IMG/VR virus record: IMGVR_UViG_3300027861_000010
DNA: 64,000 nt
Source: a virus
Reading direction: 5' to 3' (one strand)
Under the pieces are notes generated by a model. It saw only the letters and a program-made list of their open reading frames with translations, did not search any database and was not told the DNA's origin. Within the stretch, counting starts at the first letter, position 1. Each line of letters starts with the position of its first letter. A program made the position numbers and the translations under genes. Shown here piece after piece: positions 5,162 to 57,173 of this stretch.

Positions 5162-5186
5162 GACGATTGGATGCTGGCGAAATTCA

Positions 5187-5227
5187 AGGTCAATCGGTTA
5201 TCATGGTAACCGGTTGGCCTTTTTTTC
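5187..5227 (+). terminator. Rho-independent terminator ending the head cluster
   Basis: AGGTCAATCGGTTA-tcatgg-TAACCGGTTGGCCT followed by a T run. Confidence 0.75.
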
Positions 5228-5246
5228 CACTTGGAGAGCGATCCAC

Positions 5247-25702: not shown

Positions 25703-28700
25703 ATGGACCCGATGCAACTACAATTGATGCAGCAAATGGGGCTGGGCCAAGTTCCAGGCATTCCCGGTATGCAAGCACCGCTCAGTGCGGGTGGTGCTGG
25801 TCAGTTGGCGATGATGTCGCAACCTGGAATGAGTCCGTACGCTCCTGCAATCGCAGGCAATGCGTTTCCTGATGTGTCGCCTTTGGCTCCCCTTCAACCC
25901 CAGCTGCAACAGTTTGGAATGATTGGGATGCTTGGAGGCATCGCCGGAAATGCGTACCTGACGAGCATGATGAAAGAGAACGGTGTCTTGCCTATGGGTA
26001 ACGCCGGTTCTTACATGCAGGCGTATCGGGCTCGCGAATTTCAACAGATGCAGCAAGCCGTGGGTCAACAAGTTGCCGGACAAGATTCCGAGAGCTTTTA
26101 CCGTACGTTCCGCGGCATGGCTGCCATGACAGGTATGCCCTTCAACAGGGAACAGCGGAGTGCTGCTCGCGGCTTGGCTAACACCATGGCCGAATACGGC
26201 CCGATGTTGGCGATGGCTGCTCCTGGATTGCTTGACGCCTTTGCTGGAGAGCGTGGAAGTGTCCAGGCCATGTCAGCTCAAATGATGGAGGCCAACCGTT
26301 ATCGGATGGATCCACTGACAGGCCGTATGGGTTACGGCACTGAGGCTAACGCTGACCTGGTGAACAACGTCTTCGAGACTATGTTCGACGAAGATAATAT
26401 GGCCCGAATGCAGGGGATGCGAGCAGGCGATATGGGTCAGCTGTATCGTCGCCTAGCTGGAGAAGGGTTGGCTGGTCCTCGCGGCAGCACTCAAGACCGC
26501 ACACTGTTGGCGTTGAATGCGGCCCGAGGTGCGGGTGAGCTTGAGGCTATCGGGGAAGAGGCCGGAGTCAACGTTGACGGCAACTTGGCAGCACTTTCCA
26601 GTGAAGACCTAACAAAGCTGCGGCAAACCAATTCAATGCGGCAACGGATGTCCGACTCCGATGCCCGACAAGTCTCGGACCAACTCCAGGACTATGTCGG
26701 TACGTTGTCGGCAATGCGTGAGGTGTTCGGAGAAAACGGTAATCCTAATGCTCCGATTCCGCAGTTGATCAATGCCTTGGAGTCACTGACCTCTGGTCAG
26801 ATGCATAAATTCGACGCGTCCCGCCTGAATACAATGGTTCGCGACATGCAGTCATTGTCTCAGATGTCTGGCAAGAGTGTTGATCAGATCCTGGCTATGA
26901 ATCAGACGGCTGCGGCCCAGGGTCACCAGTTCGGGCTAGGCACTACGTTTGCCCCAACCGCAACAAACGTCGGCTTACTCACTGGAATGGCTTTCCAACA
27001 GGAAGGCGGAGCGACAGGCTTCGGAGCTTTGAACCGGGAAGGTGCCGAACAAGCTGCGATGAGCTATTTCAATCGCGGTATGGCGTCAGAGATGGCCAAC
27101 ACGTTAGGAGCCCTTGGTCGCATCGAAGAGGCCGGGGGTTTTGCCGACAACGACGCCGGTCGCCGGTTGAGTGCCGTCATGGAAGCGGCCCGGGCGGGCG
27201 AGTCGACCTATATCGACCCCAATACAGGTACTGAGCGAGCTTTGCCGACCAAGGAAGCCGAGTTTCGGTCGTTCATTACTGCTGACGCTGTACCTGGGAT
27301 GAACCGGGCCAGCTTCAACATGATGTTGGCAGATCGTACGTCGAACCTTCGGATGCTAAATGAAGATCCGGAACTGCAACAGGCTGCATTCAATAACCAG
27401 GCTCGGGATATCAATAAAAACATTGCTCGGCAGATCGGCAATCGTCTATCGAGTGAAGATGCTCTGATGGATTCAGGGCTGGATGCTCGGGGTCGCAATG
27501 CCGCAGCCAGAGCGATGGGTACAGCTGCCACCCAAGCACTGGGCGATTTGTCGCCGCAGGATGTGCAGAATGCAGGCGTACGGAATCGAGCAATCGCAGA
27601 TGCTTTGATGGTTGAAGCCGGTAACCAGGGCGTGGAGATGACCGATAAGGAAGCCTTGACGATGGCTGCCGGAGCATTTGGTCAAGCTGAGAATGGTGCT
27701 CGTCGCTTTGGCTTCGAGTCCTACACAGCTTTCTCGCAGGTCATGGGTGATAATGTTTCAGGCGTACGGGCAGAACGTGCAGCTCAAGCTCGAGCCCGAG
27801 CAGGGGTTAATGAAGCGTTGTCTGGAATGGGACCACGCGGCGGCATCATGGAGCGGTTCTTCAGTGCTGTCCAGAAACAGGGCGACCGCGGCAGCGAAGC
27901 TAACCTGGAAACACTTATCCAGGATATGTTCGGTGCAGACATGGACCAGGCCAAGGAACGCCTGATGCCAGAGTTACAAGCCGTGGCTGATCAAAAAGAA
28001 GAGATCGACAGAATGACAGCAGAAATCGACGGAGCAACGCCTGCTCGTCGTCGGGAACTGCAACGCGAAATTAAACAGAAGACCAAGGACCTCAATGCCC
28101 GTGTCGTTGAACTGCGAGACATCGGCATGGATATGGGTATCGGTGGCGGCGAAGAAGTCTTTAACCGTGAAGACCTCTATCGGGCAGAAGACGCCAGTCG
28201 GGACCTTGAGAACATCAACCGAAGTGACCAGGTGCGTTTGCTTGCTGCTTCAGGTTCTGTGTCGGATGCTGAGCGAATAGCTATCGCTGACGCTGATCTG
28301 ACTCGGGCTGACTACGAGGCACTTGCTGTCTCAGACCGTCAAAAACAATTGGAAGAAGCCGACACATTGTCCGCTGGCGATATCGAGAAGCTGCCAGACG
28401 AAGTTAAGTCGCTGTACGAGAAACTGAAAGGGCGTGGTGTCACCGAGAAAGCCGCTCGAGCTCGCGTTAAGGAAGTGATGCGGAGTCGGGTTGGCGGAAC
28501 CGAAGACATCGCTATCGGTCTGGCAAACACTTACGGCGACGAGATGAAGGCCGGTGGACTGAGTAAAGCAGAACAAGATATGTTGGTCAGAAACCGACGA
28601 GCTGGAATGCAGATCGCTCCAAGCGATGCTGACATCGAAGATCGTATGGATTCCATGCGGGAGGTGATGCAACTACCTGCCAACGAAGACATGACGAGCA

Positions 28701-30559
28701 AGGAGCGGATCAGTTTCATGCGAATGGCTGAGGATCAGCTGTTGGCTGAAAATCAATTGCGTGCCTTGGGTCAGTTGGGAGAAGATCAGACTCTCAACGC
28801 TGACGCCGCTGACCTCGGACAGTATGGAGATTTGAACGTCGATCTGAAGCAGAAGCTGGTTGCAGCCAAGCCGGAAGAACGAGCTGAAATTGTCAAGAAG
28901 TATCTGGACCAACAACAGCTTGAGCAGTTCTACGGTAAAGATCCCGCAGAGATCGAGAAGAATCGCGTGGCTGCTGTGGAGCAACTGGGTACGGCTGCCG
29001 GACAACGTTCCATCAGCGACACCGAAGCTAATCTAGCAACGATGATGGATGCTCGTCGTGAGTTCCTTCTGGATGAAGACGCCGCGACTCGCTTGGGTGC
29101 AGCTCGGTCTGTCCGTGCAGTGAAGCGAAGTCGTGCAGCTGAAGAGGGACTACAAGATCTTGCCAACCGATACTTCAACGGTTCGGTCGGCAGCATGGTC
29201 AGCAGTGGTGGGCTGGCTATGGATGCCGAAGGTGCCGCTAAAGCTGAAGCTGACTTCGGGCGACTGACCGACGTTCAGAAAGAGACCGTTGCTGCTCGAC
29301 TATCTCAGGCTGGTCCAGAGGTTAAAGCTGGCGATCTGACAGCTCAGAACTACAAGGCGTACCTCGGACTGCAGGCTCGAGATTACACCGACGAATTGAC
29401 GGCTGCCAATGAAGAACTGTCCGGAGCAGCTGATCAGTCGCTGATGGCGGAAGAGCTTGGAGTGACACAGGAAGAACTCGGAGCCCTGCAAAAGCTGGCA
29501 ACGCTTGAAATCAGTGACGTCGAAGGAGCTGCCAAAAAGCTTGGCATGACGGAAGACGAATACCGTGAGGCCATGCGTGGTGGAGAAATCGACAAGAGTC
29601 TTCGATTGTTCTCCGGTGAAGATGCTGACAAGCAATTAGTCGCGGCCAAGTCAGACGAACGACGACTGAACGCCCTTCAGGTTCGACGGCAGAAGATTCA
29701 AGCCGAGCGGCAAACGGACGCCGGTAAGGATTCTGCTTCACTTGCTCGGGAAGAAGAGAGACTGACTGCTTTGATGGAGCCGATGCAGGAACGGCAGAAC
29801 AAGCGAATGGAAGATGCTGGACTGGATCCGAGCAAAGCTGAGGATGTCGAAACGTACAAGAAGCGACTCAGCAACCAGGGAAGCCTACAACAGCTGGAGA
29901 AGAAACGAGAAGAATACTTGACTCAGCGACAAGTCCTGAAGGATCAGGGAATGTCAGAAGCGGAGATCGACACACAGTTGGGATCCATGAAGGAGCGAGA
30001 AGAAGAAGCTCAGGCTCAGTTGAAGGCTTTCCGCGATGCTGATCTGGGAGCAACCGACTTGGCCTTGGCTGACGCCTTCGGTTTGGATACGACTGAAGTG
30101 ACAGACGAATTGACAGCCTTCAAGTCCGGCATCACTGATGCAGGACCTGGGGCGAAGCGTACGCAAGCCATGGTTGCACGAGCCTTGGACAAGGTTGGCA
30201 AGTTGGACATTGGCGATGCTGATTCAACCGCAGTTGAGAAGCTCGACATGCTGACCGATCAGTACCGAGATGCCTCCGCAGATGAACGCAAGGTCCTGGC
30301 TCAGAAACACGGCATGGACGTCAAGGATCTTGATCGCATGATGAGTCAGACCGAGTTCCTCGGTATGCGAGAAGATAAGGGTGATTACACCCAGGACGAT
30401 TTCAAGGATGCTTTGAAGCGAGTGGGCGGACGCGACGTTGAAGCAGAAGTCGCAAAGGAAGAGGAACGACAGATGAAGCTCACCGGTACGGTCAACATCA
30501 CAGGTGTTGTCAACGGTGAAGGTACGTTCCAGGACGCCCTGGGAGTCACCGTCAGGTAG
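25703..30559 (+). CDS. Tape measure protein
   Basis: 1618 aa, helical, A/E/Q/R/M-rich, follows the chaperone pair and precedes baseplate genes. Confidence 0.85.
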   Translation: MDPMQLQLMQQMGLGQVPGIPGMQAPLSAGGAGQLAMMSQPGMSPYAPAIAGNAFPDVSPLAPLQPQLQQFGMIGMLGGIAGNAYLTSMMKENGVLPMGNAGSYMQAYRAREFQQMQQAVGQQVAGQDSESFYRTFRGMAAMTGMPFNREQRSAARGLANTMAEYGPMLAMAAPGLLDAFAGERGSVQAMSAQMMEANRYRMDPLTGRMGYGTEANADLVNNVFETMFDEDNMARMQGMRAGDMGQLYRRLAGEGLAGPRGSTQDRTLLALNAARGAGELEAIGEEAGVNVDGNLAALSSEDLTKLRQTNSMRQRMSDSDARQVSDQLQDYVGTLSAMREVFGENGNPNAPIPQLINALESLTSGQMHKFDASRLNTMVRDMQSLSQMSGKSVDQILAMNQTAAAQGHQFGLGTTFAPTATNVGLLTGMAFQQEGGATGFGALNREGAEQAAMSYFNRGMASEMANTLGALGRIEEAGGFADNDAGRRLSAVMEAARAGESTYIDPNTGTERALPTKEAEFRSFITADAVPGMNRASFNMMLADRTSNLRMLNEDPELQQAAFNNQARDINKNIARQIGNRLSSEDALMDSGLDARGRNAAARAMGTAATQALGDLSPQDVQNAGVRNRAIADALMVEAGNQGVEMTDKEALTMAAGAFGQAENGARRFGFESYTAFSQVMGDNVSGVRAERAAQARARAGVNEALSGMGPRGGIMERFFSAVQKQGDRGSEANLETLIQDMFGADMDQAKERLMPELQAVADQKEEIDRMTAEIDGATPARRRELQREIKQKTKDLNARVVELRDIGMDMGIGGGEEVFNREDLYRAEDASRDLENINRSDQVRLLAASGSVSDAERIAIADADLTRADYEALAVSDRQKQLEEADTLSAGDIEKLPDEVKSLYEKLKGRGVTEKAARARVKEVMRSRVGGTEDIAIGLANTYGDEMKAGGLSKAEQDMLVRNRRAGMQIAPSDADIEDRMDSMREVMQLPANEDMTSKERISFMRMAEDQLLAENQLRALGQLGEDQTLNADAADLGQYGDLNVDLKQKLVAAKPEERAEIVKKYLDQQQLEQFYGKDPAEIEKNRVAAVEQLGTAAGQRSISDTEANLATMMDARREFLLDEDAATRLGAARSVRAVKRSRAAEEGLQDLANRYFNGSVGSMVSSGGLAMDAEGAAKAEADFGRLTDVQKETVAARLSQAGPEVKAGDLTAQNYKAYLGLQARDYTDELTAANEELSGAADQSLMAEELGVTQEELGALQKLATLEISDVEGAAKKLGMTEDEYREAMRGGEIDKSLRLFSGEDADKQLVAAKSDERRLNALQVRRQKIQAERQTDAGKDSASLAREEERLTALMEPMQERQNKRMEDAGLDPSKAEDVETYKKRLSNQGSLQQLEKKREEYLTQRQVLKDQGMSEAEIDTQLGSMKEREEEAQAQLKAFRDADLGATDLALADAFGLDTTEVTDELTAFKSGITDAGPGAKRTQAMVARALDKVGKLDIGDADSTAVEKLDMLTDQYRDASADERKVLAQKHGMDVKDLDRMMSQTEFLGMREDKGDYTQDDFKDALKRVGGRDVEAEVAKEEERQMKLTGTVNITGVVNGEGTFQDALGVTVR

Positions 30560-31862: not shown

Positions 31863-33564
31863 CCAGTCAGCCTTCTGGGCTTTGACAGACTTTTCCGGCC
31901 AAAACAATGGCGGCGGGGCTGAACTTTTTGTGATCGTGGCGGAAACTGAAATTCCGATTGCTCAGTTCTCGATGACATACGGACTCAATGCAATTCCAAC
32001 TGCAATGGCACTGGTAGCTCTGGGTCGTGACGCCCGAACCGGGGAAGAGTCTTCAGTCTACAGCATAGTTTCTCAGCTCAAGCAGATGGCTGAAGTACGC
32101 GTAGAGATCCGCGGCAGCCTCGGGGATTGGTCACCACGAGGCGGAGCCAATGGAGGCAAACAACAATGGCCAGGCGGAACCCACACACTGTTCGTCGGGT
32201 ATGTTTCAGGTACGAGTTACCGTCGTTCGCTGGGTCGTGTGAGTTTGGTACTCAACATGGTCAATCAGTTAGTTGACTTGTCGATGTCCTCAGGCGGAAG
32301 TACGGACGTGGTTCCAGGTGCCCCTCACGATCTGATGTTGCCGACGTTGGCGGAAGGCCCGGGAGGTGAACCGATCGGTACCGCGGCAAGTAAGTTTATT
32401 GACGAGCTGCCTACAGACCTGGATGTCGATTTCAGTGAAGGCGTACTTAAGTCACTTTATGAGGTCTCTCAAAACAATCAACTCCAGGTGCACAAAGCTT
32501 GGTGTGACTTAGCCCCTACCGGGCCGGTTAATGACGAGCGGGCAAATACCAAAGCAGCCAGAGTGATTGAAGGCTTTGACAAGTGGAACGGCATTGAAGG
32601 ATATGCAGGCGGTGCGGACGCTGCATACGCAAAACCTTACCCTCTCAACATCCACACCAAAGGTAAAGAACATACGGCCCAACGCATTGGCGATGTGATT
32701 GCAGCCTCGTTGGCAGGTACAAGTATGTGGAGCATGCTAGTTGGTTCTTTAATTCCTGAATTCGGTGTCTTCATTATTCCGATAGCTCAAACAGCTTTCA
32801 TGGCACCGATCATCCCTATGAATCGAGAAGCGGCCAAAATTATTGAACCAAACGACTACGCGGACTTCAATTTGAAAACGATGTCGCAGCGTCCGCTGTA
32901 CGGTGTTGGCGTCATGGGTAATTATCAGACAGCGACCATAGGCAAGCCCGCTACGGACAACAAACAATGCGTCGGAGAGACTTTCGTAGCCAAAGCTGCT
33001 GACGGTGAAGACGCCAATGACGGCATGTGGATGTTTGTTCCGGCTCCTAAGTGGATGGATGACTGGACTAACTTCGATCCTGGAGCTCTCGACGGTGATG
33101 CTGGTATTGATAAGATGCTGGGCGAAGTGTCGCACGACGCCGTTGGCGTTAAAGACGCAGCCGTAGATCGAAATCCAGACGACGAAGTTGACGACTGGAA
33201 TGACGTCATGAAAAAGTACGCTCAAATGATGTACGCTCAAAACGCGTTGCGTGGCCGAGAAGGCACCATTGTGGGCAAGCTTCGATTTGATATCTGCCCT
33301 GGAACCACGCTTCTTGTAAAATCAAAAGGTGAGTTGAAGTCAGAGGGCGTAGATGAACTCGCTTCTGACCTTTACGGGCTAGTTTCAAGAGTCACGGTGA
33401 CGATTAACTCAGAGCAGGCTTCAGCGGCCACGACGTTGGAGCTAACTAATATCCGAACGGACGTAGAGAACCAGCAAGATCGCTTCTCGCTGGCTTCGCA
33501 TCCATTCTTTGATGATAACTTTTTTGAAACCGCCCCACTCGTACCAAGCCTGGAGGTTCCGTAA
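31855..33564 (+). CDS. Probable baseplate hub protein (gp27/Mu gp44-like position)
   Basis: 569 aa; LFVGYVSG near the N-terminus and GKLRFDICPG..LYGLVSRVTVTI near the C-terminus resemble hub proteins. Confidence 0.55.
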   Translation: MANQSAFWALTDFSGQNNGGGAELFVIVAETEIPIAQFSMTYGLNAIPTAMALVALGRDARTGEESSVYSIVSQLKQMAEVRVEIRGSLGDWSPRGGANGGKQQWPGGTHTLFVGYVSGTSYRRSLGRVSLVLNMVNQLVDLSMSSGGSTDVVPGAPHDLMLPTLAEGPGGEPIGTAASKFIDELPTDLDVDFSEGVLKSLYEVSQNNQLQVHKAWCDLAPTGPVNDERANTKAARVIEGFDKWNGIEGYAGGADAAYAKPYPLNIHTKGKEHTAQRIGDVIAASLAGTSMWSMLVGSLIPEFGVFIIPIAQTAFMAPIIPMNREAAKIIEPNDYADFNLKTMSQRPLYGVGVMGNYQTATIGKPATDNKQCVGETFVAKAADGEDANDGMWMFVPAPKWMDDWTNFDPGALDGDAGIDKMLGEVSHDAVGVKDAAVDRNPDDEVDDWNDVMKKYAQMMYAQNALRGREGTIVGKLRFDICPGTTLLVKSKGELKSEGVDELASDLYGLVSRVTVTINSEQASAATTLELTNIRTDVENQQDRFSLASHPFFDDNFFETAPLVPSLEVP

Positions 33565-34319
33565 TGGACAGCATGAACAGCATGGGCAACTACCTGGAGG
33601 AAGAGTACCGACCAGCGTATGACGCTTGGCAGGCGGATCAGACTCCACAAGGGAATGCCACTTTCTTGAAGGCTATTGATCCTGTGGTTCAAAAGGGCGT
33701 CAAGATGTACGGCAACGAGAGCCCGTTAGCGGCCAGTCGTGCAAGGCTTATGGCGTTGGAAGCTGCTCGTAAATACGACCCAAAGCGATCCCGTCTCCAG
33801 TCTCACATGCTCAATCAACTTCAAGGGCTCCGTCGTGTCTCACGGCAACAACATCAAGTGATGCGGACACCTGAGCGAGTGTTGTTGGAAAGTAATCGGC
33901 TGCGTCAGTACTCTCAAGAGATGGAAGACGAAACTGGACGGGAGCCCACCGATGCCGAACTGTCTGACCGCCTCGGCATCTCCCTGCAACGACTGAAGAA
34001 GATTCGACAATACCAGCCCGGCATGAGTACGGGGCAGGCTGAGAATGTTGATCCAATGCAGGGTCAACCGGCCAGCACCATGCCTGGACAGCAGGAAAGC
34101 GAAGAATACTGGGCTCAGATTGTTTACATGGATATTGGTCCGATGGATCAGAAGATCATGGAGTGGACGCTCGGTATGAATGGTCACAAGAAACTATCGA
34201 ACCAGGAGATTGCCAAGAAGCTCAACCGAAGCCCCGGGGCAATCACCCAACGCAAAATGCGGATTCAGAATTTGCTGAATCAAGAGCAAGACCTTTCACC
34301 ATTTGTCGTATCGGAGTAG
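33564..34319 (+). CDS. Sigma-70 family RNA polymerase sigma factor (FliA/WhiG-like architecture)
   Basis: Region 2 (LEAARKYDPKR..LQSH), region 3 (GREPTDAELSDRLGIS) and region 4 HTH (KLSNQEIAKKLNRSPGAITQ). Confidence 0.85.
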   Translation: MDSMNSMGNYLEEEYRPAYDAWQADQTPQGNATFLKAIDPVVQKGVKMYGNESPLAASRARLMALEAARKYDPKRSRLQSHMLNQLQGLRRVSRQQHQVMRTPERVLLESNRLRQYSQEMEDETGREPTDAELSDRLGISLQRLKKIRQYQPGMSTGQAENVDPMQGQPASTMPGQQESEEYWAQIVYMDIGPMDQKIMEWTLGMNGHKKLSNQEIAKKLNRSPGAITQRKMRIQNLLNQEQDLSPFVVSE

Positions 34320-35282: not shown

Positions 35283-36944
35283 ATGACACTTACCATTTCC
35301 AACTTTGAAGTTTCCGACTTAACCCAGCTCGACAATGCTGATGTCAATCAGTTGCTCGAACGGTTGGCGGAACAACTTCAAGAGCTGAATCCAAACCTGG
35401 ACTTGAAACGCGGTGTGTTCAAAGACACCGTTGCGTACTATCACGCAATTTTGGAAACAGCGATCCGCACCAACCTGGAGCGATATCAGTCTGCTCGCAG
35501 TCTGCAACAGATTGCGGCTGACCCCACCTTGGCCGACGATGATGTCGTCAACGAGGTGTTATCGAATTGGGGAGTTACTCGTCGGATCGGAACCAAAGCC
35601 ACAGGTTCAGTCACGATCGAGTTGAGTGCTTCTCGAACGGTCACCGTACCTGAGGGTTTCATATTTGAAGCTGCCGGTCAGCAGTATGCGGCCACGGCAA
35701 CTTTTGTCGCTCGACCGGCTGCTGGACAAGTCGCGACTGTGAATGACAGACTGCTGGTCCAGCTCAACAACGGCAATTGGGCTTTCGTTGTTGACGTAGA
35801 AGCCGCAGAGGTCGGTACTGAGTACAAACTCAATGCCGGGGATCTGATTGTGCCAGATCGAACACTGGTCAACTACGTTACCAGTTACGCTACCTCAACC
35901 TTCAGTGACGGTACCAACACTGAGACCAATGCTGAGTTGATTAACGAGCTGCAACTAGGGTTGGCCGCTAAGACTCTGTCCAATCGCACAAACATGCGGT
36001 CATGGCTTCGATCTATTCCGGCCTACGAGTCAGCCACCAACCAATCAATCGTAGGTTACGGCGATCCTGAGATGTTACGGGACAAGCATACAATCTTTCC
36101 GATCAGCTACGGCGGTCGGGTGGACTGGTATGTTCGAGGGCAGTCGGCACTACAACGTTCGGCCCAACAAGTAACCGCCACCTTGATTTCAATTGTCGGG
36201 AATGTCAGTACCTGGCAGTTTTCCATCACCAAGTCAATCTTCCCGGGCTTCTATGAGGTCGAGCGTATCCGGAGACTGGCTGACTCCAGCTTAAATTCCG
36301 GATTTGAGATTGTTGCGGACAACCGCGGCAATGACCTGACCGGCGACGGGTTCGTTCCGGACATCCTCACAATAGCCGAGGGAGCCTATTCCGCGTTCCA
36401 AACCACCACAATTCAGTTTGAGGATACGGCTACGGCGGTGTCTGGTCTGACTCTTGGCGACACAGCTGAATACCTCTGCGAGATTACTGGCGTTCCTTTG
36501 ATTGCCGAACTTCAAACGGAGGTTTCGAGTCGTGATATTCGTAGTTATGCCGCAGACGCCCTGATTAAAGCTCCTGTGCCTTGTTTTGTTGACATTACCT
36601 TTACAATCAACAAAGCAGCCGGAGACGCTGCTCCTGATGTGGATGGGATCAAGGCGGCCCTAGTTTCCGAAGTCAATAACATGGGGTTCATAGGCCGTTT
36701 GGACGGGTCTCATCTGGTAGACTTGGTTCATAATTTCATTATCGACGACGTCAGTGTGACGGACCTTGATCTTTTTGGTCGTGTACGCCGACCGGACGGT
36801 TCGATACAATATCTACGTGATGCAGATTCGTTGGCGATTCCGGAACAACCGGATAAGATGGTCACCGCGAAGACAGTCCAATTCTTTACCGAAGTGTCGA
36901 GGATCTCGATCAACGTTCAATCGGTAATTCCAACAGCAAATTAA
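35283..36944 (+). CDS. Baseplate J-like wedge protein
   Basis: 553 aa; NWGVTRRIGTKATGSVT, VPEGFIF and VDVEAAEVGTEYKL..G..DGTNTETN are baseplate-J-like segments. Confidence 0.8.
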   Translation: MTLTISNFEVSDLTQLDNADVNQLLERLAEQLQELNPNLDLKRGVFKDTVAYYHAILETAIRTNLERYQSARSLQQIAADPTLADDDVVNEVLSNWGVTRRIGTKATGSVTIELSASRTVTVPEGFIFEAAGQQYAATATFVARPAAGQVATVNDRLLVQLNNGNWAFVVDVEAAEVGTEYKLNAGDLIVPDRTLVNYVTSYATSTFSDGTNTETNAELINELQLGLAAKTLSNRTNMRSWLRSIPAYESATNQSIVGYGDPEMLRDKHTIFPISYGGRVDWYVRGQSALQRSAQQVTATLISIVGNVSTWQFSITKSIFPGFYEVERIRRLADSSLNSGFEIVADNRGNDLTGDGFVPDILTIAEGAYSAFQTTTIQFEDTATAVSGLTLGDTAEYLCEITGVPLIAELQTEVSSRDIRSYAADALIKAPVPCFVDITFTINKAAGDAAPDVDGIKAALVSEVNNMGFIGRLDGSHLVDLVHNFIIDDVSVTDLDLFGRVRRPDGSIQYLRDADSLAIPEQPDKMVTAKTVQFFTEVSRISINVQSVIPTAN

Positions 36945-36959: not shown

Positions 36960-37910
36960 GTGACACCCGCTAAAGGCAAGAAAGAAGCTCAACGACTTCT
37001 TCTCAAAACTTCCCTGCCCGAAGGGCAGAGTGCTCAGCAACTCAAGTTCTCGGTCGATTACTTGTCATTCTTCGGCTACATCGCTGTTGAATTGCTGAAG
37101 AACATGAACATGAAGGACCTCGAGAAGGCTGTCAAAACCTTCCAACGCTGGTTCGGATTGAAAGCTGACGGGGTTGTCGGACCCATGACGCTTCGAGCGA
37201 TGGAAATTCCTCGCTGCGGTTGTCCTGATGTTATCGACGAAGCCAACAACGTCCATAAACAGTACATGCAGATGCAGGCCGTCATCGAAGAGAACATGGC
37301 CAAGTGGAACAAGAAGGGCCTGACGTACGCCGTGCATAGCTATGTCGGAGGAATGTCCAAGACGGCTCAGCTTAAAATCTTTGCGGGAGCCTGGAAAGCG
37401 TGGGACGACGTTTGTGGTTTGAACATCCAAGCTATTGGTGATGTTGACAAAGCCGACCTGGTACTCAGTACCGGCTCTGGTTCTCGTCATAGCTTTGACG
37501 GACGTGGCGGCACTTTAGCCTGGGCTTACTTGCCCAACGGACGCGATCGCCAACTGCTGATGCGGTTCGATTTGGCAGAAACCTGGATCAGTAATCCACG
37601 GGAACGTGGTATTCTATTATTCAACGTCGCTTGTCATGAGTTCGGTCACATGATCGGTTTGACGCACTCCAAGAAAAAGGGAGCATTGATGGCTCCCTAT
37701 TACAATCCAGGGGTGGCAGTGCCGCAGTGGGATGACGATATTCCACGAGCAGAAGCCCGCTACGGGAAGGACACGGCACCGCAACCGCCAAAACCGCCAA
37801 AACCGCCAAAGCCCGATCCCGGAACTCCCGGCACGGATGATGAGGAGATATTCCATGTACAATGCAAAGGGCTCAAAGTCGATGGGTACACGCTTTTTGC
37901 AGATAAGTAG
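36960..37910 (+). CDS. Pro-matrixin (peptidase M10A) with PG-binding-like prodomain and cysteine switch
   Basis: AVKTFQRWFGLKADGVVGPMT, PRCGCPD switch, HSFDGRGGTLAWA, zinc motif HEFGHMIGLTHS, Met-turn ALMAPYY, Pro-rich hinge PKPPKPPKP. Confidence 0.9.
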   Translation: MTPAKGKKEAQRLLLKTSLPEGQSAQQLKFSVDYLSFFGYIAVELLKNMNMKDLEKAVKTFQRWFGLKADGVVGPMTLRAMEIPRCGCPDVIDEANNVHKQYMQMQAVIEENMAKWNKKGLTYAVHSYVGGMSKTAQLKIFAGAWKAWDDVCGLNIQAIGDVDKADLVLSTGSGSRHSFDGRGGTLAWAYLPNGRDRQLLMRFDLAETWISNPRERGILLFNVACHEFGHMIGLTHSKKKGALMAPYYNPGVAVPQWDDDIPRAEARYGKDTAPQPPKPPKPPKPDPGTPGTDDEEIFHVQCKGLKVDGYTLFADK

Positions 37911-48175: not shown

Positions 48176-49888
48176 ATGTCGATCAGAAATAACCACTGGT
48201 ACAATCTCAATGAACAACGAGATTACCCAATAGATGACACAGCTTCTGCTTTGTCTGATCTGGGTGACCGGTTGCCTGCTGCACTGATCCAGGATCTTCG
48301 ACTTCGCTGGCCGACCACTTACGGTGAATACGCATTCATCAGTTCGGCATCCGTGACACCGCACGTTGTCACGTTCATGATTGAAGCTACCAACGACCTG
48401 GACAACAATCCAAGCAGTTCAGTATTGATTGCAGGCATCAGCATACCGCTGGCCGAGTTAACCCAAGGCCGCACTTACGTTCTGGAAACTTTCAAGGATG
48501 GTGTTGGCGGTTTCGTGACGATCGGCTCTGGCGTGGATGTGCTATTCAAAGGCACATTTGCTACGCCGCGGCAAACTTTACTGACACCAAGAGTTGCTCG
48601 AGCCAACAGAGTACCTCCGATTCCAACGGTCGGAATCGAGCAGGCTGCCAGTTCACTGCAAGGAGTGGTGAACCTGACAGCGATTACTCCACTTCAGTTG
48701 TCCAAAGAGACGCGTGTCATTGACGGCGTCGAATACGACAATGTGATTGTTGTTCGACTGGTCGAAGAAACTACCGAGATCGCTACAGACACGTTCGACG
48801 AGACAGTCTTCTCTCGTTTCGCTGGTCCCTGCGGTCGCCGTGTTGGGTCTAAGTCCTGTGTCGATCCTCAACCTGTCGAAACAATTAACGGTATTGGTCC
48901 CGATTGCGATGGGGTTTTGACTCTGGAGTTTGAGGGTTGTGCCACTGTTGGTAGGAACGTCTCGGACTGCGGTTTGATTATCGACTGTAACTTAGGGCTA
49001 TCCGACAGCTGCGATCCACCATACTTGCCTACACTGGACACAGGAGAGCTGCCGTCGGAAGTGGTGCCGCCTGTGCTCATCCCGCCGCCTATTCCACCAG
49101 AACCTCCAGTGGGTCCAGACGTCAGCATCAGTGAGGTAGCCACCACAATTTTGGCTCTGCCGTACTGTGACAGTTTTGACGAGGGGTTTGCTTACAACTT
49201 CTCGCCGGTAGGCACTTCGCTGTTTGGCATTATTGCTGATGACAGTCCCGGTGAAGACTTCTGCTGTGTAGGTCCTCCCCATTCTGACGAGAATTACGGT
49301 TGCGACACTTCTCAATCGCTCTCGATCAGCAGCAGTATTTTTGAGGTTGAGCAGCTTCCAGATGTTAATGCCAGTTACGGGGCAGTTGCGACTGCTGCTC
49401 AAGCTCGTAAAAACATTTCACTGTTCGTTTCAGATGTTCAGACGCTCTACCGTAAGTTCACGACCGATGTCAAGATTACGCCAGGACAGCCTGGCAGTTC
49501 CTTGAACGGCGGCATACTGGTCAACTACCAAACCACTATCAGCGGGTTGTCAACTTACTTCCTGGTTCAGTTGGACATACAGGCCAGCACCTTTGGCGTT
49601 TATTTCTTCAACGGCGTACAACTTGTGCAACTGTCTGAAGTAACTGTCACTGACGTTCGCTCTTCAGACTGGTACCGACTCACGTTCCAGATTGTACCTG
49701 ACACAATTTCGCAAACTTCTGTAGCGTTCCAGGCGTCAGTTGAAGGCATTACTGATCCCAGCATCTCTGTTCAAATCAACACGTCAGTAAGTTCCAATCT
49801 GTGGGGTACTGATTCGGGCTTGTCCGGACTCTATGCCAATCGGTCGCGTAGTTACTTCTCATTCTGGCGAATCGACGAGGCATCTTAA
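48176..49888 (+). CDS. Cys-rich fibre paralogue 3 with a C-terminal lectin-like beta-sandwich
   Basis: NEQRDYPI, VETINGIGP, Pro linker, C-terminal GGILV..YFLVQ..DWYRLTF..GLSGLYA..YFSFWRI. Confidence 0.6.
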   Translation: MSIRNNHWYNLNEQRDYPIDDTASALSDLGDRLPAALIQDLRLRWPTTYGEYAFISSASVTPHVVTFMIEATNDLDNNPSSSVLIAGISIPLAELTQGRTYVLETFKDGVGGFVTIGSGVDVLFKGTFATPRQTLLTPRVARANRVPPIPTVGIEQAASSLQGVVNLTAITPLQLSKETRVIDGVEYDNVIVVRLVEETTEIATDTFDETVFSRFAGPCGRRVGSKSCVDPQPVETINGIGPDCDGVLTLEFEGCATVGRNVSDCGLIIDCNLGLSDSCDPPYLPTLDTGELPSEVVPPVLIPPPIPPEPPVGPDVSISEVATTILALPYCDSFDEGFAYNFSPVGTSLFGIIADDSPGEDFCCVGPPHSDENYGCDTSQSLSISSSIFEVEQLPDVNASYGAVATAAQARKNISLFVSDVQTLYRKFTTDVKITPGQPGSSLNGGILVNYQTTISGLSTYFLVQLDIQASTFGVYFFNGVQLVQLSEVTVTDVRSSDWYRLTFQIVPDTISQTSVAFQASVEGITDPSISVQINTSVSSNLWGTDSGLSGLYANRSRSYFSFWRIDEAS

Positions 49889-50697
49889 TGGTAGGCATCA
49901 GGCATCCCGAATTTCTGAACGAACTTGAGAACACCAAGTATCCGTTCGTACCTACCGCAGCACTGTCTAACGGGTCGGACACCTTCCTTGAAGGTACGTT
50001 CCTGGATGCTCACCTCTACACGGTGACAGGTACGAATCGGTACTACATTTCAAATGTCAACGTAGCTTCCGATCGTTTGACGATCACTATCGGCGATGCC
50101 AATGAATCTAACCGGATGACTGGTGAAGTTGCTCAACCTATCATCGACGGTAACGTCAGATTGGTTGACGTCTACGGGCGGTCAGGCGGGATCCTTGTAT
50201 CCGAGCCTGTGCGTTTATCTTTACTGGCTGCTTGGGGTGTTGGCGACCACCGCTTCGAGCAACGACAGACTGAGTTTTGTGTGACTTGTCAGGTACCTGT
50301 GCCCGACCCAGGACTGACGGCAATTCGACTGGAAACTGGGGAGATCCTTTCAGGCAAGGTGTGGTTGGTAGGTGAAGATGGTGTTGTGCTGAGGACCGAA
50401 TTGACCACAGACAAGGATGGCAATACGGTTGAAGTCTTGCGAGTCGATGTGGTTGGCGACCCGCTTTACCTTCAGAGACTCTGTACGCCGGAAGAGTTGT
50501 TTTATCCGGTCAACCCGATCCGCACGTTGCGGGTGAAACAAGGAGAATACATTTACGATTGTGTTCCTGACGAACAAGGCAACTTCACTATTCAGATGAA
50601 CGATTCGCAGGTAGCTGATGCAGCTCTGCGAATACGTACAACCCCTGAAGGCATTGTTGTCACCGTCGAAGGTTCTACAAACGCAGGGGGAACATAA
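49888..50697 (+). CDS. Baseplate/fibre paralogue 4
   Basis: NELENTKYPF; IRTL...PDEQGNFTI. Confidence 0.65.
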   Translation: MVGIRHPEFLNELENTKYPFVPTAALSNGSDTFLEGTFLDAHLYTVTGTNRYYISNVNVASDRLTITIGDANESNRMTGEVAQPIIDGNVRLVDVYGRSGGILVSEPVRLSLLAAWGVGDHRFEQRQTEFCVTCQVPVPDPGLTAIRLETGEILSGKVWLVGEDGVVLRTELTTDKDGNTVEVLRVDVVGDPLYLQRLCTPEELFYPVNPIRTLRVKQGEYIYDCVPDEQGNFTIQMNDSQVADAALRIRTTPEGIVVTVEGSTNAGGT

Positions 50698-50698
50698 C

Positions 50699-51718
50699 AT
50701 GGCTCGACCAAACTTCTTCAATGATAATGAAAATCGAACGTTCCCGTTCCAACAAGGGTCCGCAGGGATCGACACGCCTGCTTCAGGTGCTGTTGCGATG
50801 TACCAGATTCCTGACGACTTCGTAGTCGATTGTGGTTTCATCACGGGGCCGGAGTCAGGTTTCGTGGAGGGTGAGCATACGATCTTTCTCTACAAGATCT
50901 CCAGGCCGAGCAGTAATGTGATCTTGTTGGAGTTCCGGTCGGACGCTCCAGCGTTGAGCGACACTCCGTTAATCTTTTCAAGGAATACTTCAGATGCGGA
51001 CTTCACTACCGAGTTCCTCGAGAGCGACATTCCTGAGTATATCCCCCTCAGTCAGTCCGTTTCGTTGTCGCTTTCTGAATCACAAACAGTCGAGTGTGGG
51101 GAGCCTTTTTGGTCTGGTTATCTTGTTACCGGTTCTATGCAGTCTTTTGTTGATCGACTCAGTCTGGGCGGGACGATCACGAGGGCAGATACGACGGAGA
51201 CATTGGTAGAGCCTGCCTTGGTACAGAATTTGAACGAATGTCAGGTCGTTTCGTTAAATGTTGCAAATTCCGATCGTACTCGGGCTTTGCGGCCTGCGGA
51301 TTGTCCGCCGAACGAATGGAACTTCAACACCGGGGAGGTTTATGTCAACCGCGAATGTCTTCAGGGCGATGTAAGGTTAAGGGCCGGGTACAATGTTGCT
51401 CTGAATCAGATCGCGTTATCGAATACGATTCAGTTGTCAGCGATTGTAAACGCAGGATTGGGAGAACCATGTGAAGAGGTCAAATTGTTTCCAACAGAAA
51501 CACCTCCAAACGATGCTCCCAATAACTTGTTAGCCGGAGATTTTTATTGCAACGAAGTTTTGAGGTCGATTAACGGACTGCAAGGTCCAAACCTTGTAAT
51601 CTTCGCAGGAACAGGCGTATCTGTGACTGCCAATCAGGAAACTAACACCGTGCTGGTTGACGTCGATCTCGTCGACCTGTCCGCATGTACGTTTTCAGCT
51701 GTGTCCGAGTCGATCTAA
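50699..51718 (+). CDS. Baseplate/fibre paralogue 5
   Basis: NDNENRTFPF; LRSINGLQG. Confidence 0.65.
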   Translation: MARPNFFNDNENRTFPFQQGSAGIDTPASGAVAMYQIPDDFVVDCGFITGPESGFVEGEHTIFLYKISRPSSNVILLEFRSDAPALSDTPLIFSRNTSDADFTTEFLESDIPEYIPLSQSVSLSLSESQTVECGEPFWSGYLVTGSMQSFVDRLSLGGTITRADTTETLVEPALVQNLNECQVVSLNVANSDRTRALRPADCPPNEWNFNTGEVYVNRECLQGDVRLRAGYNVALNQIALSNTIQLSAIVNAGLGEPCEEVKLFPTETPPNDAPNNLLAGDFYCNEVLRSINGLQGPNLVIFAGTGVSVTANQETNTVLVDVDLVDLSACTFSAVSESI

Positions 51719-51724
51719 CGGAGA

Positions 51725-54700
51725 GTGGCAGGGATGGCCCCTACAACACAATGCCCGCAAGGCCCACAGGATCCGGTGTTCGACATCGTCAAGTGCGATG
51801 TTCCGTGCATCTTCCCGATCCCAGATGGCAATTGGATTGAAGATCCGCAGGTTCCTCCGGCACCGGATGACATCGCGGATTGTCCTGCTATCCCTGTGCC
51901 TTTACCGGAACCGGATCCACTCTGTCCTGAGATCACGTTTGATGGGAATCCTCAAGGTGGGCAGGCTCAAATTAGTGTTGTGCCGATTGGACAAGAACGG
52001 GCTTTCTTCCGTATCACTAAAGGTGAATGTTGCGATTACGACTTCGATCTTGAGATCGACTTTCCTTGTCCTGAACTGATTTCACTGGACTCGAATAGCC
52101 AATCAAACTCGAATTCAAACTCGAATTCGAGTAGTTACGCAGAGTGCGGTACGCCGCCGTCCGCTACGTTAGACATTACGAAGTCAGGCGACTGTACCTA
52201 CACCTTCGATCTTGAAGTCATATTTCCGTGCCCTCAAGACGGACCACAAGGCCCACCAGGCCCACAAGGCCCACAAGGCCCACAAGGACCGGGCGGACCA
52301 CAGGGACCACAGGGACCGGGCGGACCCCAAGGACCACAGGGACCGGGAGGCCCACAAGGGCCACAGGGACCAGAAGGTCCCCAAGGACCACAGGGACCAG
52401 AAGGTCCTCAGGGACCACAGGCACCAAAGAACCCAGACGGTCCACAAGGTCCCCAAGGACCACAAGGCCCGCAAGGACCGGGCGGACCACAGGGACCACA
52501 GGGTCCAGAAGGTCCCCAAGGGCCACAGGGTCCAGAAGGTCCCCAAGGGCCACAGGGACCAGAAGGTCCTCAGGGACCACAGGGACCAGAAGGTCCCCAA
52601 GGACCACAGGGACCACAGGGACCACAGGGTCCAGAAGGTCCCCAAGGGCCACAAGGGCCACAGGGACCGGACGGACCACAAGGAGCCGACGGACCACAGG
52701 GACCGGACGGACCTCAAGGGCCACAGGGACCAGAAGGTCCTCAGGGACCACAAGGGCCACAGGGACCAGAAGGTCCTCAGGGACCACAAGGGCCACAGGG
52801 TACAGAAGGACCACAGGGACCACAGGGTACAGAAGGTCCACAGGGACCACAGGGACCACAGGGTACAGAAGGTCCACAGGGACCACAGGGTACAGAAGGT
52901 CCACAGGGACCACAGGGTACAGAAGGTCCACAGGGACCACAGGGAGCCGACGGACCCCAGGGACCACAGGGAGCCGACGGACCACAGGGACCACAGGGAG
53001 CCGACGGACCACAGGGACCGGACGGACCACAAGGAGCCGACGGACCACAGGGACCGGACGGACCTCAAGGAGCTGACGGACCACAGGGACCGGACGGACC
53101 TCAAGGAGCTGACGGACCTCAAGGCCCCGATGGACCTCAAGGGGCCGATGGACCTCAAGGGGCTGACGGACCTCAAGGCCCCGATGGACCTCAAGGGGCT
53201 AAAGGCCCACAAGGAGCTGACGGCCCACAGGGACCGGACGGACCTCAAGGAGCTGACGGCCCGCAAGGGTCTAAAGGTCCACAAGGAGCTTCCGGACCTC
53301 AGGGAGCTTCCGGACCTCAAGGGTCTAAAGGCCCTCAAGGAACAGCTGGGCCTCAGGGAACAGCCGGACCTCAGGGTGACGCGGGACCTATAGGTCCTCA
53401 AGGCCCGATAGGTCCAGACGGTAATGCCGGACCACAAGGTCCGACCGGGGCAGCTGGCCCGACTGGTGACCCGGGACCTCAAGTTCAAGGAACAGGTGGT
53501 GGGACTGGACCTACAGGAGCAACTGGTCCAACAGGAGCAACAGGCCCAGACGGAGCCCAAGGTCCGGTTGGAGCAACAGGCCCAACAGGAGCAACTGGTC
53601 CAGTCGGAGCAACAGGCCCAGACGGAGCCCAAGGTCCGGTTGGAGCAACAGGCCCAGACGGAGCCCAAGGAGCAGCTGGGGCTGCTGGTGCCCAAGGTGC
53701 TGCCGGGGCTGCTGGTGCTCAAGGTGCTGCCGGGGCTGCTGGTGCTCAAGGTGCTGCCGGGGCTGCTGGTGCCCAAGGTGCTGCCGGGGCTGCTGGTGCC
53801 CAAGGTGCTGCCGGGGCAGCAGGTGCCCAAGGTGCTGCCGGGGCAGCAGGTGCCCAAGGACCAGCCGGAGCAACAGGTTCGCAAGGAGCAGCTGGGGCTG
53901 CTGGTGCTCAAGGTGCTGCCGGGGCAGCAGGTGCCCAAGGACCAGCCGGAGCAACAGGTTCGCAAGGAGCAGCTGGGGCTGCTGGTGCTCAAGGACCAGT
54001 GGGAGCAACAGGTTTTCAAGGCTTCACTGGTCCAACTGGATTTATAGGGTCACAAGGACCGGTTGGTCCAACGGGAGCACAAGGTTCGTCAGGTGCTCAG
54101 GGGCCATTCGGACCAGTCGGTCTTGACGGCACACAAGGCCCGACAGGAGAATCCGGCCCTGTTGGAGCAATAGGGGGTCAAGGACCAACTGGTCCAGCCG
54201 GAGCAACTGGGGCTCAAGGGGCTGCCGGAGCAGCAGGATCTCAAGGCTCTGCTGGAGCCCAAGGCTCTGCTGGAGCAATAGGGGGTCAAGGACCAACTGG
54301 TCCAGCCGGAGCAACTGGGGCTCAAGGGGCTGCCGGAGCAGCAGGATCTCAAGGCTCTGCTGGAGCCCAAGGCTCTGCTGGAGCAACAGGATCACAAGGT
54401 CCGATCGGAGCAACTGGTCCAACAGGAGACGCTGGAGCCGCGGGTGCTCAAGGGCCGACCGGTGCTCAGGGTGCTGACGGTGCAACTGGTCCAACAGGAG
54501 ACGCTGGAGACGCAGGTGCTCAAGGGGCAACCGGACCAACTGGTGGAACAGGGCCAACAGGATCTCAAGGGCCAACAGGATCTCAAGGTCCGACCGGAGC
54601 AACTGGTCCAACAGGAGACGCTGGAGACGCAGGTGCTCAAGGGGCAACCGGACCAACTGGTGGAACAGGGCCAACTGGTTCGCAGGGATCAATAGGTCCG

Positions 54701-56785
54701 ACAGGTCCGACAGGTGGTGCCGGTGTCCAGGGGCCAGTTGGAGTTCAAGGACCTGACGGAGCACCCGGTGCTCAAGGAGCAACAGGTGCTCAAGGTGCTG
54801 ACGGTACAACGGGAGCACAAGGCCCAACTGGTTCGCAGGGATCAACAGGTCCGACAGGTCCGACAGGCACCCCAGGTACGAACGGTTTACCGGGTTCACA
54901 AGGCCCGACCGGTGCTCAAGGTCCGTCAGGTGAGCAAGGTTTAGCTGGTGGTTGGTCGAGCTATTGGGAATTCGATAGTGCTACTGGAACCCCACCGGCC
55001 TCGACTCAACTTCGACTTAACAATGCAACGTTGAGTTCAGTTACTCGCATCTATGCGTCTGATACAAACATAGACTCAGTTGATGTTTCAGGAATGTTGA
55101 ACGCGATCGGTGTCGGCGACATCCTTCGCGTCTTCAATCCCTACGATTCCACAGAATTTGCTCACTACGAAATTGATTCCATTACGGATCAGACTTCGTA
55201 CTTCGACTTCACTGTCACTCATATCGAATCCAACGGTACGTTTACCGACGCGAATCCGATTGTGATGACGGTTTCTATGTTGGGTAATGTTGGTAACCAA
55301 GGGCCAGCCGGAATTACAGGCCCGACCGGTCCTGTTGGGGCTCAAGGAGCAGCTGGCCCAACCGGAGGAACCGGCCCCGCTGGTGTACAAGGCCCAGCAG
55401 GTACTCAAGGGAGTACGGGTCCGAGTGGTGCACAAGGTACAGTAGGTGTTCAAGGAGATACAGGTCCGAGCGGGGCACAGGGATCGGCTGGTGCCCAAGG
55501 ACCGGACGGAGCAACCGGCCCAACTGGAGGAACTGGCCCCGCGGGAGCAACCGGCCCAACTGGAGGAACTGGCCCCGTTGGTGCTCAAGGACCGGACGGA
55601 GGCACAGGACCAGCCGGACCAGCGGGCTCACAAGGACCAACCGGCCCAACTGGAGGAACTGGTCCCGTAGGCGGTCAAGGACCAACAGGCTCACAAGGTC
55701 CGACTGGTCCAACTGGAGGAACTGGCCCCGTTGGTGCTCAAGGACCGGACGGAGGCACAGGACCGGACGGAGGCACAGGACCAGCCGGACCAGCGGGCTC
55801 ACAAGGACCAACCGGCCCAACCGGCCCAACTGGAGGAACTGGTCCCGTAGGCGGTCAAGGACCAACTGGCTCGCAAGGGTCATCTGGTCCGGCTGGCGGG
55901 CAAGGCCCTACTGGTACTCAAGGACCGGACGGAGGCACAGGACCAGCCGGTACGCCAGGTCCTGCTGGTATTCAAGGTCCTGCTGGTGTTCAAGGTCCGG
56001 TAGGTGCAACAGGTTCGCAGGGGCCGACAGGTCCTACTGGAGGCGGCGGTCCAGCCGGTCCTCCTGGTGCTCAAGGCCCAACAGGAACCCAAGGTGCGAC
56101 AGGTTCGCAAGGACCAACCGGCCCAACTGGAGGAACTGGCCCAACTGGAGGAACTGGCCCCGCGGGAGCAACCGGCCCAACTGGAGGAACTGGCCCAACT
56201 GGAGGAACTGGCCCCGCGGGAGCTCAAGGCCCAACAGGAGCCGCCGGAGACGCCGGAGCCCAGGGACCAACCGGAACCGCGGGAGACACCGGCTCACAGG
56301 GTCCAACCGGAACCGCGGGAGACACCGGCTCACAGGGTCCAACTGGAGCTGCCGGGGATCAGGGACCAGAAGGTCCTCAGGGACCTCCTGGACCTCCAGG
56401 AGGAGCGGGACCGCTAACGCTCAGCGACGAGTTCAATCCTTATTTGGACTTCAGTGAGCCAGCGACTGATACATCCATGTTCCTTCGTTCTGGTGCTCAA
56501 GGAGCGACCGGTGCTCAAGGTTCGGTTGGACGCCAAGGCGGCTCCGGTAAACAAGGTTCGACAGGTAAACAAGGTCCGTCCGGTACTAACGCTACCGCCG
56601 AACGTGGTGGTTTACTTGCAGCTTCGATGCTGGATTCAGTGGCAGAGCCTGGTACGATATACTACTCTCTAACTTCGATGAGACTTGTATTCATGGATCG
56701 CAAAGGCAAGATCTTCTCGCTCACAGGTGATGTTCCGGACGGGTACGTTAAGTTCAAGGAGGACTCAGCTGGACCGCAAATTTAA
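51725..56785 (+). CDS. Giant collagen-like fibre protein (start may be ATG 51734)
   Basis: Cys/Pro-rich N-terminal domain, about 300 Gly-X-Y triplets, a ~110-aa globular domain, about 125 more triplets, 11 short triplets and a C-terminal domain. Confidence 0.92.
52241..54946 (+). repeat. Gly-X-Y coding repeat block 1 (9/18/27-bp units)
   Basis: GGACCACAG-type and GGTGCTGCCGGGGCTGCTGGTGCYCAA-type tandem units. Confidence 0.95.
54164..54379 (+). repeat. Tandem 108-bp duplication inside the collagen
   Basis: The unit starting GGAGCAATAGGGGGTCAAGG occurs at 54164 and 54272. Confidence 0.85.
55283..56416 (+). repeat. Gly-X-Y coding repeat block 2
   Basis: GPT/GGT/GAQ/GSQ triplets, repeated GGCCCAACTGGAGGAACT units. 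Confidence 0.95.
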
Positions 56786-56798
56786 GTGAAGGAAAACC

Positions 56799-57173
56799 AT
56801 GCACGATACGATGGCCGTTTACATGACTGTCGAGGACCCAGAAGGTTTGGCTCCAGTGGAGAATGCTTACTGCACTCTGACAGAAGTTCATGCCAACTTC
56901 AAAACTAAGTCGTTGATTGCAATCTTCGAGTGCTGGCGAAGCCGTCAGGCTTTTGAAGCAGAGCGTAAGTCGTTCACCGCGATTCAGTTGCAATTTGAAA
57001 CAGAGAATGGCGGTAAAGAGTTTTTCGAGCGGTACGGCGTCGACGGGGCAGGCTTGTCTCTTGGCCCCAACATTAAGCAGTTCGCCCTGGAGCGGGCACT
57101 TAACGGGGCTATCTTGGTTGACGAAGGAACAACACAGGACGTAGAGAGGGAATCGACCGTTGAGCAAGCCTAA
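56799..57173 (+). CDS. Small protein after the fibre gene (possible fibre chaperone/adaptor)
   Basis: 124 aa, SD GAAGGA, position typical of fibre-associated small genes. Confidence 0.55.
   Translation: MHDTMAVYMTVEDPEGLAPVENAYCTLTEVHANFKTKSLIAIFECWRSRQAFEAERKSFTAIQLQFETENGGKEFFERYGVDGAGLSLGPNIKQFALERALNGAILVDEGTTQDVERESTVEQA

Follow-up and report, generated by a model that had tools for sequence, protein, structure and literature searches.

How long can the collagen rod of a phage fibre become, and how might a protein of such length be put together? The question is raised by a stretch of viral DNA of 64,000 nucleotides (IMG/VR record IMGVR_UViG_3300027861_000010, referred to below as the window) from an uncultured marine jumbo phage. 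On its plus strand an open reading frame (ORF) at 51725-56785 encodes a protein of ~1,685 residues that consists largely of Gly-X-Y triplets. To our knowledge, structural work on collagen-like phage fibres has hardly gone further than short examples from prophages. We consider it likely, from the sequence and its relatives, that this gene encodes a very long collagen-like virion fibre, probably homotrimeric and most likely attached to the baseplate. The analysis itself shows how the sequence is built, to which family and gene order it belongs, how rod length differs among relatives, and how a domain within the rod is folded and distributed. All features described lie on the plus strand.

The collagen-like rod

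Counted from a GTG at 51725, the frame has 1686 codons and ends in a stop at 56783-56785; the preceding gene ends at 51718. An ATG at 51734, 10 nt 3' of a GGAG sequence, is the likelier start and gives 1683 residues. The protein matches the Pfam Collagen model (PF01391) at E 1.4e-152, with 496 bits against a cut-off of 27.2, and Pfam searches of the whole protein and of its C-terminal 122 residues returned Collagen only, with no Peptidase_S74 (PF13884). This is the sole collagen gene in the 64-kb window, which points to a homotrimer. The raised GC content and strong AT skew over 52-56 kb arise because the rod is written in GGN, CCA and CAA codons.

Counting Gly-X-Y runs of at least four triplets, we found 436 triplets in five runs, at residues 173-232 (20 triplets), 239-586 (116), 589-1077 (163), 1187-1564 (126) and 1590-1622 (11), in agreement with the ~435 of the original prediction, which had been made from the letters of the window. 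The first rod block spans residues 173-1077 and measures 905 residues, where ~900 had been proposed, and has two small breaks. One is APKNPD, six residues at 52421-52438 that replace Gly twice and leave the triplets in register; the other is VQ, two residues at 53483-53488 that shift the register. At 0.286 nm per residue, and as a matter of arithmetic only, block 1 would be 259 nm long and block 2 108 nm, close to the ~260 and ~110 nm first put forward. A tail of ~240 nm, offered with these values for comparison, is unsupported: the 1618-codon ORF at 25703-30559 that was supposed to be the tape measure has no Pfam or PHROG match. The label 'animal-collagen-sized' was fair, as animal fibrillar collagens have ~360 triplets by the same count; they were among the 120 best-scoring matches to the rod (proteins of 927-2951 residues), none of which reached 436.

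The composition of the rod changes along its length, in the order that had been described. Zone 1 (residues 173-586; 52241-53482; 136 triplets) is acidic and dominated by GPQ, with 37 Asp/Glu against 4 Lys/Arg and a net charge of -33. The following 163 triplets (53489-54955) comprise zones 2 and 3. The former is a neutral, Ala-rich zone of GAA and GAQ triplets to ~54064 (residues 589-780), in which Pro makes up 3-10%, down to 3% in places, and Gly is held strictly at every third position throughout; the latter is mixed to Thr-rich. Block 2 (residues 1187-1564; 55283-56416; 126 triplets) is again Thr-rich, with GPT, GPA and GGT triplets, and together with residues 781-1077 it has 102 Thr at Y. 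Over the rod Pro occupies 49% of X positions, and the Y positions are 37% Gln, 23% Thr and only 2% Pro. Family searches of the larger ORFs of the window found no hydroxylase.

An in-line beta-barrel and a conserved tip

Between the two blocks lies a folded domain of 109 residues (1078-1186; 54956-55282), abutted by collagen at both ends; the original prediction had described a globular domain of ~110 residues here and called it a knee. AlphaFold2, with an alignment of eight sequences, models it as a beta-barrel (predicted local distance difference test, pLDDT, 82; predicted template modelling score, pTM, 0.78). A search of BFVD with this fold returned 45 viral proteins at E<=1e-3, with template modelling (TM) scores of 0.7-0.9; nearly all are 'collagen triple helix repeat' proteins, and they come from uncultured phages, Synechococcus phages and giant viruses. 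Among the giant-virus matches are proteins with collagen repeats from Marseillevirus, Indivirus and Klosneuvirus. Sequence comparison links the domain to phrog_35140 (E 1.7e-7) and to tail-fibre proteins that carry three copies of it in tandem as well as a phage tail collar domain. It also resembles gp218 of cyanophage S-CAM7 (NC_031927; 28% identity, E 3e-5, TM 0.84), where the barrel again stands directly between two collagen runs, and a domain encoded at 113898-114203 of the 735-kb uncultured phage LR756501.1 (32% identity, E 2e-9). The modelled barrel is thus a recurrent in-line companion of viral collagen. That an in-line domain splits the rod was borne out; hinge-like bending, as the word knee implies, was not supported. 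Among PDB folds we found generic barrels only, which we rejected (best Foldseek E 0.014; VIA-align Z<=6.7, in the noise range), and knee peptide patterns gave no confirmed match in viral contigs.

Block 2 is followed by a 25-residue, family-conserved FNPY linker (56417-56491), a mini-collagen of 11 triplets (56492-56590) and a tip of 64 residues (56591-56782) with a hairpin-like motif, TIYYS ... LV[F/Y]-x-D-x-x-G-x-x-F, all delimited by triplet counts and an alignment of C-termini. The chain has a net charge of -94, and its only basic patch is formed by the mini-collagen, the one basic stretch of the rod, and the tip. Linker, mini-collagen and motif are conserved in seven complete members of the family described below: they are shared with loci L004, L009, L011, L020, L024 and L026, occur also in P0091 and P0144, and are rare outside the family. 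A search of the ESM Atlas with this module found collagen-driven neighbours only. These C-terminal ~120 residues are a family-conserved module that, judged by its sequence, is probably a trimerising or registration tip at the distal end.

The N-terminal anchor and cysteine beads

The N-terminal anchor is the most conserved part of the family. It is Pro/Cys-rich, comprises ~68 residues (51734-51937) and was delimited from an alignment of 29 sequences of the family. Seven Cys residues are invariant in the 29 sequences over the N-terminal region (C7, C21, C25, C64, C99, C100 and C112). Two Cys modules, or beads, follow at 51965-52075 and 52145-52240, separated by a Ser/Asn-rich linker (52076-52144) whose coding DNA contains a 12-bp tandem repeat. 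Each bead has three short predicted strands, and its end lies immediately ahead of a Gly-X-Y run; the first ends in an FPCP motif and the second in FPCPQ, which abuts the first triplet of the rod. The duplicated FPCP-type motif noticed originally (at about residues 96-117 and 151-171) is therefore a genuine module, repeated in relatives, which carry from 2 to more than 10 tandem copies and in some cases up to 54 Cys.

Single-Cys modules of 39-47 residues also occur between collagen segments in five relatives (L017, L014, L004, L024 and L026), with up to five per protein among relatives; in L017 (10001-12713) they measure exactly 43 residues each and give the appearance of beads on a string. 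A hidden Markov model built from 17 such inter-collagen beads matches the second N-terminal bead of the present protein in the expected place with only 2.1 bits, a weak sequence match that is no more than suggestive of homology between the two kinds of bead. The end domains of EPclA-type prophage collagens, PfN (PF08400) and PfC (PF06820), were not detected even at E<=1 on the isolated ends. We saw no N-terminal hydrophobic signal on reading the translation, no predictor having been applied.

A family of fibres that differ in length

A phmmer search of 1.84 billion representative sequences with the N-terminal 169 residues found 77 matches at E<=1e-3, the best at 4e-74, and scans of viral contigs and metagenomes yielded 36 loci of the fibre family. 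By these sequence comparisons the protein belongs to an unannotated, undescribed family from uncultured large phages. In GenBank phages, blastn and tblastn found nothing for the baseplate block, the N-terminal domain, a 317-residue upstream protein or the downstream glycosyltransferase. Gene order is shared across the 36 loci (tblastn): wherever the DNA extends far enough, six conserved genes stand upstream, at 45532-51718 in the window, and the fibre gene comes next. A homologue of the GT9-type glycosyltransferase (58-73% identity) lies 3' of the fibre gene in all 11 loci with downstream DNA, and a 124-residue ORF between the two is kept in 8 of these 11.

The N-terminus is retained at 33-71% identity among relatives, and the rod and distal parts vary; a conserved N-terminus with a variable rod and distal part is the usual logic of tail fibres. 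Complete relatives have 50, 87, 92, 99, 100, 155, 260 and 312 triplets, so that complete genes of the family range from 50 to 436, and uninterrupted runs of up to 238 triplets (and another of 225) occur in independently assembled relatives. None of the complete members found is longer than the present gene, and longer ones may exist. In 20 of the 36 loci the ORF runs off the contig inside the collagen, so the lengths recorded for this family in databases are truncated.

Among the relatives retrieved, only this protein combines the knee with the standard C-terminal module of the family; the knee occurs also in L001 and L021, and the standard module in L004, L024 and others. The fibre thus looks like a mosaic of two rod-plus-cap units. 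In L001, larger globular distal domains follow the knee and replace the usual family tip. This relative (10001-12778; 925 residues) also has a GPCCEG break and a Tyr/Arg-rich block of GYRGPQ; the break is reminiscent of the cystine knot of type III collagen.

DNA repeats and the reliability of the length

Tandem Repeats Finder detected units of 108 bp (2.2 copies at 97%), 117 bp (2 copies), 180 bp (2 copies) and 27 bp (12.3 copies at 85%), with 27/54-bp arrays over 52244-53071; the tandem DNA units that had been pointed out, the doubled 108-bp unit included, were therefore found. Identity between these units has fallen to 70-97%. Exact repeats within the gene reach 116 bp at most and no 127-mer occurs twice, which leaves an assembly with large k only one route through it. 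As for length tuning by such units, the rod does differ in length between relatives; variants within a population were not supported, since the contig joints had short sides of only 21-30 nt and were of a type that often comes from repeats or other organisms, and they are not evidence for length variants.

At least 17 seawater runs contain at least half of the sampled words. We compared the k=31 contigs of four seawater runs with the fibre region. Three of these runs have contigs identical to the window over 50700-52312 and 56314-57700, and unique inner pieces match, again with zero differences, at 53230-53563, 53896/53965-54278, 54646-55537 (which includes the knee) and 55837-56137; the fourth, shallower run gave short exact pieces only. 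The contigs stop and resume where repeated 31-mers begin (52283) and end (56343). A C-terminal protein call of 102 residues is present on 12 contigs, which include one of 213 kb. Gene calling has even listed C-terminal pieces of 102-110 residues as proteins in their own right, where the contigs measure 161-213 kb. We take the gene and the order of its parts to be real, and consider 436 likely to be right as an exact triplet number.

The glycosyltransferase and other neighbours

The fibre gene lies within a conserved same-strand structural block, 3' of baseplate genes that include a baseplate wedge gene at 35283-36944 (phrog_6, E 1.7e-19). The small 124-residue ORF (56799-57173) begins 13 nt past the fibre stop and overlaps the next gene (57160-59193), which encodes a 677-residue glycosyltransferase. 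As this gene starts within the small ORF, fibre, small ORF and enzyme look co-expressed. The enzyme matches Glyco_transf_9 (PF01075) at E 4.8e-8, with 33.1 bits against a cut-off of 22, and its homologue in L001 does so at E 4.6e-12. Its C-terminal half is weakly GT2-like (PF13641, E 0.0054, below the cut-off), NCBIfam gave only lipopolysaccharide heptosyltransferase matches far below threshold, and a phmmer comparison with the whole of the PDB, solved protein O-heptosyltransferases of the TibC/AAH type included, gave no match at E<=0.1. In Clostridioides difficile, SgtA is encoded beside bclA3 and adds O-GlcNAc to Thr of GPT collagen repeats (PMC7157674). By analogy, the GT9-type enzyme might O-glycosylate the Thr-rich rod, a speculative proposal to which we give perhaps a third of our belief.

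Several other genes of the window deserve mention. Within the baseplate module, 14 kb upstream of the fibre gene, 36960-37910 encodes a matrixin-type metalloprotease (Peptidase_M10, E 1.1e-28) with an N-terminal PG_binding_1 domain. An ORF of the structural module at 33564-34319 has matches to sigma-70 region 3 and region 4 (E 6.4e-9), and one at 39827-40939, between baseplate genes, contains the Planctomycete-type cytochrome c domain PSCyt1 (E 6.6e-5). A second glycosyltransferase, of GT2 type, is encoded at 4860-6488 (Pfam E 7.5e-12).

Weighing the explanations

A number of results weigh against a baseplate-attached, trimeric collagen fibre of this length. The triple helix, the trimer and the presence of the protein in the virion are what we infer from the sequence, as we do its attachment site, folding order and function, and it is gene order that places the fibre at the baseplate: the genes at 43657-51718 had no Pfam or PHROG family match, and three of them that were tried had no meaningful PDB match. 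Low Pro and the lack of any ion pairs mean that the helix of the Ala-rich zone may be marginal. Modelled as a monomer, the N-terminus came out with low confidence (pLDDT 56, pTM 0.26), too poorly for a fold search, which could be expected of an oligomeric domain; the Cys motif is a putative trimerisation unit, as the original prediction had also suggested. A distal tip that is small and conserved, and not variable, would be unusual as a receptor-binding end. A foldon homology of the tip was rejected at the level of sequence (probability 0.14% in hhalign with the final 60 residues of T4 Wac), so that any resemblance is functional at most, and a profile search of the PDB with the C-terminal module gave a weak match to the C-terminus of 7chu (E 0.057). 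The glycosyltransferase gene also lies 3' of the fibre gene of L034, which has only 4 triplets; its presence is thus independent of a collagen rod. Finally, none of the k=31 contigs of the four seawater runs spans the repeats, and a collection of 15 billion proteins lacks the exact full-length sequence.

The placement of the fibre is open to a different interpretation, namely that it is a virion component at the neck or head, like the whiskers formed by T4 fibritin or the head filament of phiCbK, with a role in environmental sensing, unspecific adhesion or assembly and not in the specific binding of a receptor. An anchor, a long rod and a small conserved tip mirror fibritin, the T4 wac gene directly follows the baseplate and short-fibre genes 6-12 in the annotated record, and a tip that is conserved across relatives and not hypervariable fits such a role. 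We nevertheless regard it as unlikely, because the protein has no sequence similarity to fibritin or its foldon, no neck genes were identified adjoining it, and L001 and L021 carry larger globular distal domains of tail-fibre type that fit receptor binding. Far less credible is a protein outside the virion altogether, displayed on or released from the infected cell for adhesion or aggregation. Exported-looking proteins and the matrixin are encoded in the same module and bacterial collagen-like surface proteins exist, but the position of the gene in a conserved structural block after baseplate genes, a knee fold and motif types that are those of phage fibre proteins, and the absence of a hydrophobic signal in the translation as read all argue against it.

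Doubts of another sort concern the rod itself. It may be that only part of the Gly-X-Y sequence winds into a helix and that the Ala-rich stretch (~53489-54064) is flexible or disordered, the fibre being a tether with soft segments. Scarce Pro over residues 589-780, a rod almost devoid of Lys and Arg for ion pairs, and the failure of family searches to find a hydroxylase in the window make this the most serious of the alternatives, one that we would give perhaps a quarter of the weight. Strict Gly at every third residue across the zone is, however, hard to explain without a helix constraint, less stability is called for in a cold marine habitat, and glycosylation of Thr could stabilise the rod, as glycosylation adds stability in BclA-type and Riftia collagens. 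The length might also be partly a product of assembly, with a true triplet number other than 436, as would befit the gap between 52312 and 56314 in the k=31 contigs, the 20 related contigs that end in collagen, and a collection that holds the C-terminal call on 12 contigs and not the exact protein. This is improbable in view of the divergence of the units, the lack of a recurring 127-mer, the coincidence of the contig breaks with the span of repeated 31-mers (52283-56343), and the inner unique pieces recovered in their expected places without mismatch in three runs. A frame that stays open for 5 kb and the long uninterrupted runs of independently assembled relatives argue in the same direction.

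A possible architecture and its implications

Within the favoured interpretation of a baseplate-attached virion fibre, the parts can be arranged as follows. The Pro/Cys-rich N-terminus and the two Cys beta-modules would fasten the fibre to the particle and close off the beginning of the helix. Two rods, of 299 and 126 triplets, would each carry a folded domain at the C-terminal end, the barrel in the first case and the FNPY linker, mini-collagen and hairpin-motif tip in the second. C-terminal trimerising domains nucleate the chains of animal collagens and of the prophage fibre EPclA; here the caps may likewise join three chains and set their register, so that each rod zips separately. If wound along its whole length, the fibre would extend ~380 nm and be strongly anionic, with a basic patch at the distal tip only, and it could plausibly serve to catch host cells or particles from a distance in dilute seawater. 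Between relatives, the rod could lengthen or shorten through gain and loss of tandem DNA units, and the Thr-rich rod may receive O-linked sugars from the co-operonic GT9-type enzyme. Taken as a whole, a hydroxyproline-free, two-unit capture line of ~380 nm, nearly devoid of Lys and Arg, with a nucleator at the C-terminal end of each rod and stabilised by Thr that the GT9-type enzyme O-glycosylates, is a tentative model that is rather unlikely to hold in every part. If the two-unit interpretation is true, this would be the longest phage collagen found here.

The family provides a natural length series, from 50 to 436 triplets with one conserved anchor and one conserved tip, which is suited to asking how collagen without hydroxyproline can fold, find its register and remain stable across hundreds of nanometres, and also what the length of a fibre means for the capture of hosts in dilute water. 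The barrel, which is shared with collagens of cyanophages and giant viruses, is a candidate for a general viral collagen-trimerising module, and both it and the small tip could serve engineered bacterial collagens. A further implication is for metagenomics, as assemblies break systematically within the fibre gene (20 of 36 loci) and such fibres are under-counted and truncated in metagenomic catalogues.

Comparison with known systems

Collagen-like phage fibres are already known, and the protein described here is a striking variant and not a new kind of thing. Its helix is comparable in length to that of animal fibrillar collagens, which have ~338 uninterrupted triplets, and nucleation from the C-terminal side is presumed in both; the relationship is one of analogy only, since the phage protein has no propeptides, no visible machinery for hydroxyproline, 2% Pro at Y, a zoned sequence and a folded domain within the rod. 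T4 fibritin similarly has an N-terminal anchor, a long rod and a small C-terminal trimerising unit (as we suppose for the fibre), and its gene also follows those for the baseplate and short fibres, but its rod is a coiled coil rather than collagen.

Closest in composition are the EPclA-D proteins of Escherichia coli O157:H7 prophages (PMC3368898), which likewise have Pro at X, Gln or Thr at Y, no hydroxyproline and globular ends. For EPclA a stable triple helix was demonstrated and the C-terminal domain trimerises (PMC3368898). The X and Y composition of the fibre matches this viral and prophage pattern, which supports its assignment as a collagen-like fibre. EPclA differs in having PfN, a coiled coil and PfC, a rod many times shorter with many Lys and Arg where the fibre has almost none, no in-line barrel and no Cys beads. 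The S74 collagen fibres that dominate the matches to the rod are also long, often of 1500-2000 residues, and come from uncultured phages; they end in PF13884 where the fibre has its 64-residue family module, and those at the top of the match list have ~270-320 triplets in short runs, against 436. S-CAM7 gp218 has the same barrel between two collagen runs, yet it is a protein of 500 residues and ~22 triplets with other termini, from a T4-like cyanophage. BclA and BclA3 share with the fibre Thr-rich repeats of GPT type and an adjacent glycosyltransferase gene (PMC7157674), but are bacterial spore proteins with another C-terminal domain, and the GT9-type enzyme is unrelated to SgtA. What distinguishes the present fibre is its extreme length, its new anchor, bead and tip modules, its in-line barrel and its fixed glycosyltransferase partner.

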